Positions 353-37,584 of a DNA stretch of 57,283 nt are shown here, piece by piece; position 1 is the first letter of the stretch; each line of letters opens with the position of its first letter. A program made the translations under genes and the position numbers. The notes beneath the pieces were generated by a model. It saw only the letters and a list, made by a program, of their open reading frames with translations, was not told the origin of the DNA and made no database searches. The DNA comes from Acidobacteriota bacterium (lineage in GTDB: Bacteria > Acidobacteriota > Terriglobia > Acidiferrales > 2-02-FULL-67-57). Location: assembly GCA_016210855.1 (NCBI GenBank), contig JACQTJ010000098.1, positions 1 through 57,283 of the forward strand. Reading direction: 5' to 3'.

Positions 353-3949
<3,597 letters not shown>

Positions 3950-18366: not shown

Positions 18367-18459
18367 GTCATTCTGAGCCCGCAGGGCGAAGAATCTCAAT
18401 CTGAAGTATTAGGCACCGTTTGAGATCCTTCGCCCCGAAGCTTCGGGGCTCAGGATGAC
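18367..18459. repeat. compound palindromic (REP-like) element: two inverted copies of GTCATYCTGAGCCC-hairpin-GGGCGAAGRATCTC
   Basis: Left unit 18367..18397 on the plus strand. Right unit 18459..18422 on the minus strand (GTCATCCTGAGCCCCGAAGCTTCGGGGCGAAGGATCTC). Each unit has its own GCCC/GGGC hairpin, and a 24-nt spacer separates them. Confidence 0.8.
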
Positions 18460-20651
18460 AAGCCGGGGGAATGGGCGAAATAGAGGCGGAAGGGCTCGAA
18501 GGCCTGGCGGAGCAGCTCCAGGTATTTTTCTCGGTCGTAGCTCGAGAAGCCGTTGAGCAGGGTAAAGGGCCGGGCGCGCTCGGTGGGCAGAGCGGCGTCA
18601 GCCTGGGTGATGACGTATTCGATGGCTTCACCCGGGCGCAGCTGGACCCCGCAGGCTTCGAGCGCCTGCGCCGCCACCGCCACCAGGCTGGCTTTCTGGT
18701 AATCGCCTGGCGCCTGGGTCAGGCGCTTGCGGATGATGAGCTCCTCCCAGCTCACTTTCCCCGCCCGCAGCCGCTCCTCGAAGCGGGCCAGGACTTCAGC
18801 GGCCTCGGCGAGCTTCTGCCGGTAGGAGTTGGCGTCGTGGGCCTCGGCGAACAGCCGGAGCACTTCCTCCTGCATGCGGGCAACCAGCGGAGGCGCGTCG
18901 TGCCGGCGCACCTCGAGGCCGCGCACTTTGATGCGGTTGCTTCCGGCAAACACCCCGAAGTAGCGGTTGGGCACGGACACGGCGGCGTTCTGTCGGGAGG
19001 GCAGGAAGACGATGTACTTGTACACGCCTTCCAGGGCTACGGGCAGGTCGGTGGCGGCCTCGATGGCCCGGGCCAGCTCTTCGTAGTCCTGGCGGGTGGC
19101 CCCCGGCTTCTCGACCCAGAGCGAATCCACGATGGCGTGCAGCAGGCGGAAGCCGGCCCGCTCGCTGACTTCCTTCGCCACCAGCAGCTTTTCCCGCCCG
19201 AAAGCGTTGATGGCTTCGTGGGCCTCGATGCGGCCGAAGCGAGCGTTCTTGTAGCCGAGGTAGCCGAAACAGGTGACCAGCAGCCACTTCAAGGCGTTCT
19301 GGCGGTCGTCGTAGCGGCGGCGCTCGCTTTCCTCTCTCGCCTCGTGCATGAGTTGCTTGTAGCGGGCGCGCTTTTCGATGATGGGCGCGACCGTCTGCGG
19401 CACCAGGCCCCGGCGCCGTCGGCAAATCCCGTAGCCGATCTCCGGCACCCGGGCCGGGCAGCCGCAACGGCAGTTGACGGTCTCGGGGGAGACGTTGAAG
19501 CGCGCCATGATGCTGGGGAACATGGAGGCGAAGTCGAGTTCCCCCACGTTTTCGTGGAAGCCCAGGATGGGCTTGAAGACCAGGCCGCCGCGGTCGGTGA
19601 GCAGCAGCTGGCGAGCGGTTTTGAACTCCTCCGGCTCGCGCTTCTGCCAGGGGATAAGGATGTGCTGGCGGCAGGCGAGGTCGAGCTGCATAGAGGTGAT
19701 GCCAGTGCCGGTCGAGGTGCGAGCCATGTACTGCAGGGGGAGCTTGGTCAAGCGCGAGAGCTCGAACAGCCCCTCCAGGTTGGTCTCGCCCACGGCGAAA
19801 GAATTTTTGCGGTCAATGTGCAGCCGGCCGAACAGGGTGGTCGAGCTGTCCTTGAAGACAATGCGCCCGTAGGAGAAATACGACCGGGCCCGCTTGTGGT
19901 GGGCGGCGCAGGCGGGGTCGCGGTTCAGGGGCAGCGGACAGTCCAGGCGCTCGGCTGCCTGGAGCAGGCGCGGCAGCAGGAACGAGTCGCCCCAGTCGGT
20001 GAGCAGGATATCGGGGTCGTCCTGGCGGAGCCGCCGGGCGAGGGCCGCCAGCAGTTCCCGCGGGTCGTCTTCGGTGAGCACTTCGACGCGGTCTTCCACG
20101 CACACTTCAAGCCCGCCGCGGTGGCCGTGCTGGGGAGTGATGGATTCGCCCTCGAGCCGCCACTCCATCACCGTGAGCGGCGGCAGTTCGTACTGCGTGG
20201 CCCAGGGGTCGTCCTCGACCCTGAGCGCGCGCACCCGGTCGGCCTCGTCCACCTCGAGTGCGCAGCGGGCCAGCGGGAAGACGCCTTTCTCGTAGGCATA
20301 GAGCGCGGGCAAGGAAATGTCGCAGTTGAACAGCTCTGCCCGCGGTGCCTGGCGGTGCACCCAGCGGGCCACGGCCGCAAACTGCACCGGGCGCCGGACG
20401 CCCACCTCGAGGACCGTCTGCCAGACGCCGCTCCAGAGGTCCTGTCGCTCCACCCAGTCGAGCCGCACCGGGAACTCGGCGGCCAGCCGGGGGGTGAGCT
20501 GGGCGATCTTGTCGAGCGGGCCGCCCACGTAGAAGCAGGGCGTGAAGTCCGTGTCCACGAGGCGCCGGCGGCGCCCGGCGGCCTCAATCGTCCACAGCAC
20601 CATCCCCTCGGGGCTCGGGTAAAGATCGAGCAGCCAGGTTTCGACCCGCAT
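18450..20651 (-). CDS. family-B DNA polymerase, archaeal-PolB-like, exonuclease motifs degenerate (733 aa)
   Basis: Motif A [11 protein letters not shown]. Motif B region [22 protein letters not shown]. Motif C region [11 protein letters not shown]. N-terminus [16 protein letters not shown] resembles the archaeal PolB N-terminus. Start set at the ATG at 20651, which has a GGAGG SD. Confidence 0.85.
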   Translation of the reverse strand: [733 protein letters not shown]

Positions 20652-20907
20652 CAGTAGCCTCCAGACTTCGTAGCCGTGCCGCGAGAGCGCGAATCTCTTT
20701 TTGCTGCTCCAGGAGCAGCGACAGAAAAACAGCGTCGAGCGGATCCCAGGGCGTCTCGAAAGAGCCCGCGGCGGCGTAGTACTTGACCCGCGCAAACAGC
20801 TCGTCAAGCACCTGCTGGTCTTCGCGGCGCAGGGCGCGCCGGTACTTGGCGAAGCGCGCCTGGGTCTGCTCGATCAGCTGGTGAAAAGTCGCGACCGTGC
20901 GTCCCAT
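20584..20907 (-). CDS. hypothetical helical protein (107 aa), middle gene of the polymerase operon
   Basis: ATG at 20907 preceded by GGGAGGTGG. Reads MGRTVATFHQLIEQTQARFAKYRRALRREDQQVLDELF... with helix-like periodicity. No family recognised. Confidence 0.6.
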   Translation of the reverse strand: MGRTVATFHQLIEQTQARFAKYRRALRREDQQVLDELFARVKYYAAAGSFETPWDPLDAVFLSLLLEQQKEIRALAARLRSLEATDAGRNLAARSLPEPRGDGAVDD

Positions 20908-21523
20908 GCTCCACCTCCCTGGTCTTCGCTTCGCGCAGACACAGCCCTGCCGGGCTCTCCTCCAGGCGATAGGCTTCGGTGGCCTGCCGCTCGAGCTCCC
21001 CGCGCAGCCAGGTGCCCAGCGGACTCAGGCGCGGCGGTGCGTCGGAGAAAATCAGCGCCGTCAGGCCTTGCTCGGGCCAGCGCCGCAGCTCGTCCAAGCT
21101 GCGGGTGAAAGCCGCCTTGGCCTCGGCGGCCGGCAATTCCTCGTCGTCGAAGATGTCCGGCATGCCGGCCACCACCACCCGCCGGGCTCGAAAGCGCCGA
21201 GCGGCGGCCGGGGTGCGCTCGATGAGCTCGGCCAACTGGAAGCAGGTAAAGGCGCGGGAGATGCGCACTCGCCCGAGAAACTGCGCCGGCGGACGTCGGC
21301 ACTGTTCGGCGAAGACCACCAGCCGGTAGGGGTTGAAGCAGTTGGCCGCGTCCAGGAATAACACCACTTCCCCACGCAGGAGCGGCGCTGCCAGGAAATA
21401 ATGCGACAGGCGCGAGCTTTCCGGGTGCCCGGAGAGCACAAACAGGCCAGGGCGGCTTGAAAGCGTCCCGAGCAGGCAGCGGGCCGGGCCGGTGAAAGCC
21501 GGGGCCGGAACAGGCAGTGACAT
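20804..21523 (-). CDS. RadA/Rad51/RecA-fold protein lacking the Walker A lysine (ImuA-like logic)
   Basis: Core strands VVLFLDAANCFNPYRL, RVRISRAFTCFQLAELIE and RVVVAGMPDIFDDE resemble the RadA/Rad51 core. The P-loop position reads SGHPESSRLS. Start set at the ATG at 21523 (MSLPVPAP) behind GAGGTGG and a consensus promoter. Confidence 0.6.
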   Translation of the reverse strand: MSLPVPAPAFTGPARCLLGTLSSRPGLFVLSGHPESSRLSHYFLAAPLLRGEVVLFLDAANCFNPYRLVVFAEQCRRPPAQFLGRVRISRAFTCFQLAELIERTPAAARRFRARRVVVAGMPDIFDDEELPAAEAKAAFTRSLDELRRWPEQGLTALIFSDAPPRLSPLGTWLRGELERQATEAYRLEESPAGLCLREAKTREVEHGTHGRDFSPADRADPGALRQVPARPAPRRPAGA

Positions 21524-21540
21524 TGACCACCTCGAGGGGA

Positions 21541-21569
21541 TAATAGGCGAATAAAAAGCGAAAGTCAAG
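21541..21569 (-). promoter_or_regulatory. near-consensus sigma70 promoter of the RadA-like/PolB operon
   Basis: Minus strand has TTGACT (21569..21564), a 17-nt spacer TTCGCTTTTTATTCGCC, then TATTAT (21546..21541). The spacer contains the direct repeat TTCGC-N6-TTCGC. Confidence 0.65.
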
Positions 21570-21632: not shown

Positions 21633-22472
21633 ATGAACTTGCGTCGCTATAAGAACCTCGTCCCTGACTCCCCCCTGCACCGCCAGCTTGAGAGCCTGCT
21701 GCTCGCCAATGGCGGCCGGGTGTCCGCGGCCACGGTTTGCGAAGAGGTTCTGCTGCTGTCCGGCACCGACTCGAGCCTGGCCAAGGTGCTCGTGCAGGGC
21801 CTGATCGAAGACGACCCCCGCCTGCGAGTCTCGGACGGCGGCGTGGAGTGGGTCGAGCCGAGGCATGAGACCTGGCGGGCCTGCCGGTGCTTTGTGGTGG
21901 TGGACGTCGAGACCACCAACGGCGGCCGGGGCGAGCAGCACATCATGGAGATCGGGGTGTGCAGGGTCGAGGACGGGCGCCTGGAGCGGGAGTGGTCGTC
22001 GCTGGTTAACCCCGGCCGGCCGATTCCCTACTGGGTGCAGCAGCTCACCGGGATCACCGACGCCACCGTGCGGACGGCGCCGCCCTTCGAGGAAATCGTC
22101 CCGCGGTTGCTCGAGGAGCTGGAAGAAGCCATCCTGGTCGGCCACCACGCTCGCTTCGATATTGGCTGCCTGAACGCCGAGTTTGGCCGCTTGCTCGGCA
22201 AACGCCTGGGGAACCCGTACCTGTGCACCGCCGAGCTGGCACGGCGGTTCCTCCCCGGCAGCGAGAACTATCGGCTCCAAACCTTGAGCCAGTGGCTGCG
22301 TCTAACCCACGAGCGGCCCCACCGGGCCGGCTCGGACGCCCGGGCGACAGCCGAGCTGTTCTGCCATCTGCTGGCCAGGGGCGAGCTTCCCTGGGGCGAC
22401 TACCTGCGGCCGCGGGTGAGCCCGCCGCCCGGGCAGAAGATAAGTGAAACGAATTCCCCGGCCTTTTCGTAA
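21633..22472 (+). CDS. DEDDh 3'-5' exonuclease (DnaQ/epsilon-like) with an ~85-aa N-terminal extension
   Basis: Exo I VVVDVETTN, Exo II GHHARFDIGCL and Exo III HRAGSDARATAELF are all intact. The N-terminal 85 aa is a separate small domain. Confidence 0.85.
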   Translation: MNLRRYKNLVPDSPLHRQLESLLLANGGRVSAATVCEEVLLLSGTDSSLAKVLVQGLIEDDPRLRVSDGGVEWVEPRHETWRACRCFVVVDVETTNGGRGEQHIMEIGVCRVEDGRLEREWSSLVNPGRPIPYWVQQLTGITDATVRTAPPFEEIVPRLLEELEEAILVGHHARFDIGCLNAEFGRLLGKRLGNPYLCTAELARRFLPGSENYRLQTLSQWLRLTHERPHRAGSDARATAELFCHLLARGELPWGDYLRPRVSPPPGQKISETNSPAFS

Positions 22473-37005: not shown

Positions 37006-37584
37006 ATGAAGAAAGCCATTGGATTGCTCAGCGTGCTGCTGCTGGCCGCCGGGTTCGCCTGGGCGCAGTCGCAGCAGCTGAGACTTGGCGAGCTGGCGCG
37101 GAAGGTTCGCACCGAGCGGGCCTCGAGAGACCTGTCCCGCGTACCCTTCTTTACCAACGACACCCTGCCCAAGCAGGGCGGAATCTCAGTAGTGGGAGGG
37201 GCTGGGGCAGCAGCTGCCGGCGAAGCTGGAGCCGCGGGCGCCGAAGGGCAGACGGCGGCCGCCGGGAGCGAGCCTCCCCAGTGCGACGAGCCATGCTGGC
37301 GCGGCAAGTTCCGCGAACAGCGGGCGAAGATTCAGACGGCGCAGCGCGAGCTCGACATCCTGCAGCGCGAATACAATTTGGCCCGCACCCAGTACTACCA
37401 GGATCCCAACCAGGCGATGCGGGAGCAGTATTCAGGCACCGGCGCCGGGGGAAACCAGCTTCAGCAGCTGCTGAACCAGATGAACGACAAGAGGGCTGAG
37501 ATCGAGCGGCTCCAGGGCGAGCTCGGCGAACTGGAAAACCAGCTGCGGCGTGAAGGCGGCCAGCCGGGCTGGGCGCGCGAGTAG
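37006..37584 (+). CDS. secreted coiled-coil protein
   Basis: GAGGTGA SD. Signal peptide MKKAIGLLSVLLLAAGFAWA, then an Ala/Gly-rich linker and a C-terminal heptad-like region. Confidence 0.6.
   Translation: MKKAIGLLSVLLLAAGFAWAQSQQLRLGELARKVRTERASRDLSRVPFFTNDTLPKQGGISVVGGAGAAAAGEAGAAGAEGQTAAAGSEPPQCDEPCWRGKFREQRAKIQTAQRELDILQREYNLARTQYYQDPNQAMREQYSGTGAGGNQLQQLLNQMNDKRAEIERLQGELGELENQLRREGGQPGWARE

Follow-up and report, generated by a model that had tools for sequence, protein, structure and literature searches.

Introduction

What is the purpose of an operon in which a bacterium encodes an archaeal-type family-B DNA polymerase together with a RadA/Rad51-like protein devoid of a Walker A motif and a small helical protein, and has such a set of genes been described before? 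The question is raised by three consecutive genes, iRadA, PPB2 and PolB2, found in a stretch of 57,283 nt (hereafter, the window) of the genome of an Acidobacteriota bacterium (assembly GCA_016210855.1, contig JACQTJ010000098.1, forward strand). An original prediction, made from the DNA sequence, had interpreted the trio as a PolB-based counterpart of the known bacterial mutasomes, to be used either in damage tolerance and mutagenesis or in recombination-coupled DNA synthesis. The analysis presented in this work indicates that the locus is very likely a bacterial PolB2 mutasome operon of a Terriglobia-like acidobacterium, repressed by LexA and induced by DNA damage, whose products would carry out the error-prone extension of lesion-opposed and mismatched termini. 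The individual steps of the mechanism are each proposed with lower confidence than the reading as a whole.

Regarding the second part of the question, the original prediction had recognised no described system with this composition, a statement that has to be withdrawn, since the iRadA-PPB2-PolB2 operon was described in 2013/2014 and modelled in 2025, with Acidobacteriota and Terriglobia among its hosts. Its earliest description is reportedly that of Makarova and Koonin in 2013. Later, an operon composed of PolB2, an inactivated RadA and a small helical protein of arCOG07300 was predicted in archaea and in "several bacterial genomes" (Makarova et al. 2014, PMC4104785). In some of these genomes lexA was found in the same operon, and a role in the response to DNA damage was inferred, with the processing of stalled forks or an alternative initiation also considered among the possibilities, the latter for archaeal loci linked to orc1/cdc6 (PMC4104785).

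More recently, Timinskas, Timinskas and Venclovas (2025, PMC11791011) gave the two partners the names iRadA and PPB2, and the system that of "PolB2 mutasome". In this study a single transfer from archaea to bacteria was proposed, iRadA-PPB2-PolB2 was the only gene order seen in bacteria, and a heteropentamer with a PolB2:iRadA:PPB2 ratio of 1:1:3 was modelled with AlphaFold-Multimer/AF3. The authors described an MGRT arm in PPB2, a D(K/R) motif in PolB2 and, preceding the latter, a Rad51-oligomerisation-like segment binding iRadA, as well as a clamp-binding motif with which iRadA or PolB2 ends only in a fraction of the systems. Operons of Acidobacteriota and Terriglobia are listed in its supplementary file 1 as type "1a (iRadA-PPB2-PolB2)". 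In a survey from 2026 the bacterial group is called G2/PolB2 (PMC12926913). Taking into account that the trio of the window maps feature by feature onto the published operon, it is a member of that system, of type 1a, and not a new one.

Conservation of the Operon among Bacteria

A scan of GTDB, with one genome per species, returned at least 597 relatives of PolB2, and the best 80 loci were examined, 71 of which were informative, that is, extended at least 1.1 kb upstream of PolB2. The three genes lie on one strand and in the order iRadA-PPB2-PolB2 in 69 of these 71 loci, which belong to at least eight phyla; the synteny between PolB2 homologues and the two partner genes is thus conserved. Hosts of the operon are found in Acidobacteriota, Nitrospirota, Chloroflexota, Bacteroidota/Ignavibacteria, Thermodesulfobacteriota, Verrucomicrobiota and Armatimonadota, among others. 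The neighbourhoods vary among phyla, and the trio is constant.

iRadA, a RadA-Like Protein without ATPase Motifs

Searches with the single sequence of iRadA against Pfam, NCBIfam and the PDB gave only marginal matches to Rad51, RadA and KaiC (E = 0.015 for Rad51 in Pfam), as well as matches to MutM (E ~0.004) that were judged spurious. The relationship was settled only with a profile of the family and a model of the structure. The profile, made from 35 homologues, matches the ATPase domain of P. furiosus RadA with E = 1.3e-7. The AlphaFold2 (AF2) model, built on the homologue alignment, reached a mean predicted local distance difference test (pLDDT) score of 87.5 and a predicted template modelling (pTM) score of 0.79, residues 200-239 being not confident. 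When this model was compared with the PDB by Foldseek, the top 50 matches were all DMC1, Rad51 or RadA (E ~3e-9, TM 0.60-0.66, probability 1.00). The protein is therefore a relative of the RecA fold at the level of profile and model, as had been anticipated, and it is predicted to adopt the ATPase-core fold of RadA/Rad51.

The residues required by an ATPase of this kind are missing. At the position of the P-loop, after strand beta1, iRadA reads G32-H-P-E-S-S, with no GK[ST], in agreement with the absence of Walker A already pointed out in the original prediction. Where RadA has the Asp of Walker B (LLIVDS), the iRadA family has an Ala or Thr (VVVAG/VVLTG), Ala being the residue in the window protein. 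iRadA also lacks the N-terminal helical (HhH) domain, its start lying about 10 residues ahead of the first core helix in the AF2 model. The folded core corresponds to residues 10-198, and it is followed by a disordered C-terminal tail (~200-239) encoded in the overlap with PPB2. The iRadA frame enters PPB2 by 104-107 nt in another frame (20804..20907 in the window, 3522..3628 in the close relative L203), and the apparent conservation of this tail of about 35 aa is a by-product of the conservation of PPB2.

A different C-terminus is observed in the Anaerolineales-type iRadA proteins, whose last five residues, QPRLF or QLRLF, constitute a beta-clamp-binding motif (L043, L045, L050, L051, L053, L054, L072; P0071-P0074). 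Such ends correspond to what Timinskas et al. (2025, PMC11791011) named the "shuttling clamp motif".

The features of the iRadA core bear on the alternative function that best survives, the one in which the RadA-like protein, loaded on single-stranded DNA or D-loops, would bring in PolB2 for the extension of invading strands, or else would regulate an origin-independent initiation. The RadA/Rad51 fold of the first protein agrees with such a role in recombination or restart, for which stalled-fork processing or alternative initiation were named in the 2014 description (PMC4104785), and an SOS-controlled promoter, such as the putative one discussed below, would be compatible with a restart function too. 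However, recombination-coupled synthesis is weakened because iRadA has neither Walker A nor Walker B, nor the N-terminal domain that forms filaments. Moreover, the published models place PolB2 on the very surface of iRadA that a filament would use (PMC11791011), archaeal genetics and biochemistry favour targeted mutagenesis and extension in translesion synthesis (TLS) (PMC11791011, PMC8764526), and no orc, helicase or primase partner was seen in the bacterial loci examined. We consider this explanation unlikely, and the corresponding half of the original prediction is the less likely one. The other half, a mutasome counterpart for damage tolerance or mutagenesis, is sustained by the published descriptions (PMC4104785, PMC11791011), the dead iRadA, the exonuclease-dead PolB2 and the SOS-type operator.

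PolB2, a Family-B Polymerase with a Decayed Exonuclease

The product of the third gene matches PF00136 (E = 5.5e-37), and its closest solved relatives are archaeal (Thermococcales) PolBs (~1e-53), so its assignment as a family-B polymerase nearest to archaeal PolB was correct. Among curated models, it scores highest with NF004416 (PRK05761.1-2, "type B DNA-directed DNA polymerase"), with 404 bits and 1e-120; the models for E. coli-type Pol II reach at most 80 bits (best NF004421, with a cut-off of 570). The N-terminal 400 aa were compared by blastp with reference PolBs, those of PolB2 coming from the supplement of PMC11791011. The identity is 50% with the Terriglobia PolB2 MBZ5699581.1 (6e-124), 42% with an Ignavibacteriota PolB2 (2e-107), 33-38% with archaeal PolB2 from Thermoplasmatota, Thermoplasmata and Nitrososphaera (1e-59 to 1e-77), and 25% with Pfu PolB (2e-22), a reference sequence consistent with the P. 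abyssi chain in its segments Exo II and Exo III. On the basis of these identities, the protein appears to group with archaeal and bacterial PolB2, and not with other PolB groups.

The Asp of motif A (D373) is kept. Motif C reads H505-A-I507-V-D509-S, in which the first Asp of DxD has been replaced by Ile and the second is kept, and [I/L]VD is found at this position in 22 of the 22 aligned PolB2 homologues, the same state as in the IVD/LVD column of the table in PMC11791011. Before motif A there is an Asp, invariant among the aligned homologues, followed by R or K and then by GG (D353-R354-G-G in the window). Just ahead of it lies F343-K-T-A346 (EEFKTA), which we take to be an FxxA motif of Rad51/BRC type, its counterpart in archaeal PolB2 being EEFKTAKELLVCDKGG. 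PolB2 would thus carry the D(K/R) motif preceded by a Rad51-oligomerisation-like segment for docking on iRadA.

As regards the 3'-5' exonuclease domain, it has decayed, with its active-site residues gone. Exo II reads GDSFLLP, versus GDNFDFP/GDSFDFP, the Asp being replaced by L225; no conserved DxE is found at Exo I; and the Tyr of Exo III has disappeared through a deletion of about 33 aa, D280 being the only residue kept. The Pfam model DNA_pol_B_exo1 gives no match to PolB2 at E<=1.

Could the polymerase itself be dead? In this older "inactivated polymerase" view, which was the interpretation given in 2008-2014 (PMC4104785), the trio would be a catalytically dead relic, left with no more than a regulatory or structural role as a DNA-binding complex, and the IVD that replaces DTD in motif C and the degenerate Exo I, II and III can be invoked in its favour. 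Nevertheless, D373, D509 and the block KWLLVxxFGYxGYKNARF show little or no variation in the alignment of 22 homologues, which points to selection on catalysis, and the Dpo2 proteins of S. islandicus and S. solfataricus, with the same kind of substitution (IID), are robust polymerases (PMC8764526). The relic is thereby left as a very unlikely explanation. The Sulfolobus representative of the catalytic subunit is Dpo2 (Feng et al. 2020, 2022), and that of S. islandicus is devoid of exonuclease activity and able to elongate primers whose ends are mismatched or placed opposite a lesion (Feng et al. 2022, PMC8764526).

PPB2, the Small Helical Partner

The protein encoded by the second gene is a member of the PPB2 family (arCOG07300/DUF8156), a small three-helix protein with an MGRT arm. 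PF26485 (DUF8156) is carried by 120 of 120 sequence homologues of PPB2; direct Pfam scans of the protein are empty because the release used lacks this entry, and the AtzH-like and HpxZ matches obtained in the Pfam and NCBIfam scans were discarded as noise. Its N-terminus is MGRTVATF, and M1, G2, R3 and T4 are invariant in all 33 aligned homologues. In the AF2 model (pLDDT 76), an extended N-terminal arm is followed by helices at residues 8-25, 28-47 and 56-94. The comparison of this model with the PDB by Foldseek gave nothing below E = 2, and hence no solved structural relative; the likeness to a sigma-factor N-domain reported in PMC11791011 was not reproduced by this search.

With the PPB2 profile, 2312 representative clusters at 50% identity were recovered (E<=1e-3) among 1.84 billion proteins, which means that the system is common in environmental bacteria. 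The public gene call of L203 omits PPB2: given the overlap of about 100 nt between iRadA and PPB2 in this lineage, gene callers can skip the small gene, as occurs in L203. Automated surveys may consequently undercount complete iRadA-PPB2-PolB2 operons.

The Promoter and Its Putative SOS Operator

The near-consensus promoter that had been proposed for the operon, TTGACT-17-TATTAT, was recovered by a promoter scan at 21568..21540, where it agrees with the consensus at 10 of 12 positions; the region contains three sites of this kind, versus 0.1 expected in shuffles. The entire 17-nt spacer between the -35 and -10 hexamers is occupied by TTCGCTTTTTATTCGCC, a direct repeat TTCGC-N6-TTCGC with an 11-bp period. 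When 21 acidobacterial operon promoters are compared, 16 of the 17 spacer positions are invariant, the downstream proteins being only ~50% identical.

The same element is found in front of other genes. Metagenome contigs scanned for TTCGCYTTTTNTTCGCC gave at least 120 matches, and among the matches listed, with the downstream families confirmed by Pfam, the element precedes genes for DinB_2 (six contigs), iRadA (five), a Y-family polymerase (IMS; four), LexA (three), UDG (three), and recA and fpg (one each). In the lexA promoters of these contigs, the 17-mer is again located between a TTGAC-like -35 and a TAnnnT -10. Since it precedes lexA, recA, and Y-family polymerase, DinB-family and UDG genes, a distribution typical of a LexA regulon, the 17-mer TTCGCTTTTTATTCGCC is, as judged from its sequence context, very probably the acidobacterial LexA (SOS) box. 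The direct-repeat LexA box of Alphaproteobacteria is GTTC-N7-GTTC, which TTCGC-N6-TTCGC resembles. According to the title of a work by Mazon et al. from 2006, Acidobacterium capsulatum is said to have acquired a lexA of alphaproteobacterial type. Taking together this resemblance and the logic of the regulon, LexA would be expected to bind TTCGC-N6-TTCGC, and the operon to be LexA-repressed and damage-induced.

The commonest gene behind TTCGCYTTTTNTTCGCC among the matches listed encodes a DinB_2/DinB-superfamily protein that begins MTIGQSMLxEFDQEMxNTRK... (L083, L105, L123, L157, L175, L192 and others). The DinB_2, UDG-family and Fpg/Nei glycosylase genes located behind the element are candidate members of the acidobacterial SOS regulon.

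Within the window, TTCGC-N6-TTCGC with one mismatch is not enriched (8 matches versus 6.7 expected), and there are two exact matches, one at 21547..21562, the only site considered relevant, and the other at 37313. In L011 (4000-4049), L014 (3967-4016), L018 (3968-4017) and L025 (3873-3922), a second, inverted copy of the -35/operator/-10 module was observed 16 nt upstream of the operator of the operon, forming with the operon's own module a back-to-back promoter/operator pair; no convincing leftward open reading frame (ORF) was found behind the inverted operator in these four loci.

The connection with lexA takes another form in other phyla. In 19 of the 80 GTDB loci, chiefly from Nitrospirota and Thermodesulfobacteriota, a lexA homologue is encoded upstream of iRadA at a distance of up to about 5 kb, mostly directly before it and on the same strand, and several of the promoters of these lexA genes contain GAAC-N4-GTTC-like palindromes. 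The order in Nitrospirota is lexA-iRadA-PPB2-PolB2, and the lexA promoter contains palindromes such as GGTGAACAAATGATCACC (GAAC-N4-GTTC-like) or TGTAACATTTTGTGACA (L022, L052, L055, L067; L031, L035-L037, L047). With GAAC-N4-GTTC-like palindromes before the Nitrospirota lexA, the operon would be wired to different types of LexA box across phyla.

That the trio belongs to a PolB-using mobile element or anti-phage defence system, comparable to casposons, pipolins or the defence systems that synthesise DNA, is hardly credible, as the original prediction had already sensed for defence: although family-B polymerases occur in self-replicating mobile elements and the operon is proposed to have reached bacteria by horizontal transfer from archaea (PMC11791011), its operator is common to lexA and recA promoters, the trio stays constant while the neighbourhoods differ among phyla, the flanks are housekeeping genes (pyrE, truA, a TolC-family gene) of flat GC content, no integrase, Cas1 or terminal repeat accompanies it, and PADLOC, which has no model for iRadA or PPB2, made no defence assignment, its sole PolB match being a "homing endonuclease" model over the polymerase region.

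Proposed Mechanism of the PolB2 Mutasome

The function of the PolB2 mutasome operon in this acidobacterium can be envisaged as follows. In undamaged cells, LexA would be bound to the TTCGC-N6-TTCGC operator and would block RNA polymerase, it is proposed, because the operator fills the spacer between -35 and -10. After DNA damage, the RecA-stimulated self-cleavage of LexA would free the promoter, and a single mRNA would be produced, in which the three overlapping genes would each be translated from their own Shine-Dalgarno sequence. PolB2 would then dock on the ATPase-dead iRadA through its Rad51-oligomerisation-like beta-alpha motif (EEFKTA), leading to a PolB2/iRadA/PPB2(3) complex as in the models of PMC11791011. 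This complex, devoid of proofreading, would act in error-prone damage tolerance, mainly through the extension of mismatched or lesion-opposed primer ends, as occurs with archaeal Dpo2. By analogy with these systems, both the stoichiometry of the complex and its TLS activity may be presumed for bacteria.

Several observations pull in the opposite direction. No lexA gene is present within the 57-kb window, and the binding of LexA to the operator is predicted from the logic of the regulon and from the likeness to GTTC-N7-GTTC. In this lineage there is no QLxLF-type beta-clamp motif at the C-terminus of iRadA (...PAPRRPAGA in the window) or of PolB2. The pentamer is a published AlphaFold model (PMC11791011). 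Finally, PolB2 stands alone in two of the 71 informative loci (L042, 4368-6551; L071, 4956-7256), in both of which at least 4 kb of sequence upstream of PolB2 is available, with neither partner gene next to it and no ORF beginning with MGRT.

Comparison with Known Systems

The operon of the window shares with the published PolB2 mutasome the three protein families and their order, the MGRT arm, the IVD/LVD motif C, the D(K/R)GG sequence with its docking segment, the loss of the exonuclease, the absence from iRadA of both the ATPase motifs and the N-terminal domain, and a probable link to the SOS response. It differs in that lexA is not adjacent to it in the acidobacterial lineage, where control is apparently exerted by an operator in the promoter spacer, a feature absent from the papers; in that its iRadA runs 104 nt into PPB2 in another frame; and in that iRadA and PolB2 lack a canonical clamp-binding motif.

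The ImuA-ImuB-DnaE2 system is a LexA-controlled cassette, as the operon of the window would be, and it combines an error-prone, non-essential polymerase with an accessory protein and with a member of the RecA family that is often ATPase-dead (PMC12926913). However, its homology to the trio is limited to the level of the RecA superfamily. DnaE2 is a C-family polymerase and that of the window belongs to family B (PF00136); ImuA is RecA-like and not RadA/Rad51-like; and ImuB is an inactive Y-family protein with a RecA-NT motif, whereas the middle protein of the window is a 107-aa helical DUF8156 protein. Membership in this system was discarded on the basis of the family-B polymerase and of the lack of a Y-family fold in the middle protein.

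Other polymerases offer partial parallels. E. coli Pol V (UmuD'2C-RecA) uses, as is modelled for PolB2, a recombinase-family partner through an oligomerisation-like motif, with the N-terminal arm of a small subunit near the active site, and eukaryotic Pol zeta is a damage-induced, proofreading-less B-family "extender", as the PolB2 complex would be (PMC11791011). Both are made of other protein families and have a different stoichiometry, the RecA of Pol V being an active recombinase and the partners of Pol zeta being Rev7, Pol31 and Pol32. The usual family-B polymerase of bacteria, E. coli Pol II (PolB), has in common with PolB2 the family-B fold and the SOS induction presumed for the latter, but it consists of one subunit, whose DEDDy exonuclease is active and which carries a clamp motif at its C-terminus. 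An assignment to E. coli-type Pol II was rejected, considering the degenerate exonuclease motifs of PolB2 and its 80 bits versus a cut-off of 570.

Gene Organisation and Neighbouring Genes

The features of the locus are collected in Table 1. The three minus-strand ORFs were found where the original prediction had placed them, the peptide strings that it quoted are all present in their translations, and the start codons are backed by homologue alignments. The overlaps are of 104 nt between iRadA and PPB2 and of 68 nt between PPB2 and PolB2. The two embedded Shine-Dalgarno sequences that had been noticed are both in place, that of PPB2 (GGGAGGTGG) inside iRadA and that of PolB2 (GGAGG) inside PPB2.

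Table 1. Coordinates of the genes and regulatory elements of the PolB2 locus in the window.
Feature	Position	Strand	Remarks
iRadA (gene 1)	21523->20804	minus	239 aa counted from ATG
PPB2 (gene 2)	20907->20584	minus	107 aa
PolB2 (gene 3)	20651->18450	minus	733 aa
-35 hexamer TTGACT	21563..21568	minus	promoter scan; TTGAC kept in most acidobacterial homologous loci
-10 hexamer TATTAT	21540..21545	minus	promoter scan; consensus of homologous loci TAnnnT
Putative LexA operator (SOS box) TTCGCTTTTTATTCGCC	21546..21562	minus	conserved promoter spacer
GC-rich hairpin GCCCCGAAGCTTCGGGGC	18432..18449	minus	perfect, directly 3' of PolB2 stop
DEDDh/DnaQ-type exonuclease gene	21633..22472	plus	279 aa, PF00929 2.5e-31

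The hairpin that follows PolB2 has an energy of -23.2 kcal/mol for a 46-nt segment (z = -4.0 versus shuffles) and is separated by 33 nt from the point at which the pyrE ORF, as listed, begins (18399). It is possibly the end of the transcript; the terminator scan made no call at this site because the hairpin has no T-run.

The flanks are, as had been stated, housekeeping genes of uniform composition. They include pyrE (TIGR01367, 206 bits, cut-off 150), truA, an HMGL-like synthase gene, a TolC-family OEP gene and a methylmalonyl-CoA mutase gene, and the GC content around the operon is flat (0.65-0.69). The description of the flanks by pyrE and the TolC-family gene was incomplete, as it overlooked a DEDDh exonuclease gene, divergent from the PolB2 operon and situated between it and the TolC-family gene. 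In NCBIfam, its product best matches the exonuclease domain in the models of DinG and of PRK07883 ("DEDD exonuclease domain-containing protein"). The intergenic region between this gene and the operon, of 109 nt, holds the putative operator, and a plus-strand promoter-like sequence, GTGACA-16-GATAAT, is located at 21517..21544, with the implied transcription start of the DEDDh gene inside the operator.

One LexA operator could, in principle, co-regulate the face-to-face promoters of the PolB2 mutasome and of this DinG/Cho-type exonuclease, which would trim or proofread primer ends in trans. Such an arrangement seems improbable to us. The DEDDh gene is beside the operon in 0 of the 80 GTDB loci and has been seen only in the near-identical neighbourhood of the close relative L203; as a conserved partner of the operon it was rejected. 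If the arrangement did exist, a family-B TLS polymerase of bacteria would have its editing nuclease co-induced with it but encoded by a gene of its own.

Significance

As a discovery, the operon carries little weight, taking into account that its type, archaeal origin, composition and probable role in mutagenesis have been published, and that acidobacterial examples were included in the published set. What is added to the published descriptions is the operator in the promoter spacer. The locus provides a clean chromosomal and probably SOS-wired example of a system that has never been studied experimentally in bacteria, and its operator offers a direct test of the control by LexA of those bacterial PolB2 mutasomes that have no adjacent lexA. 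Beyond this operon, TTCGC-N6-TTCGC can be used to map the SOS regulon in Acidobacteriota that have not been cultured.

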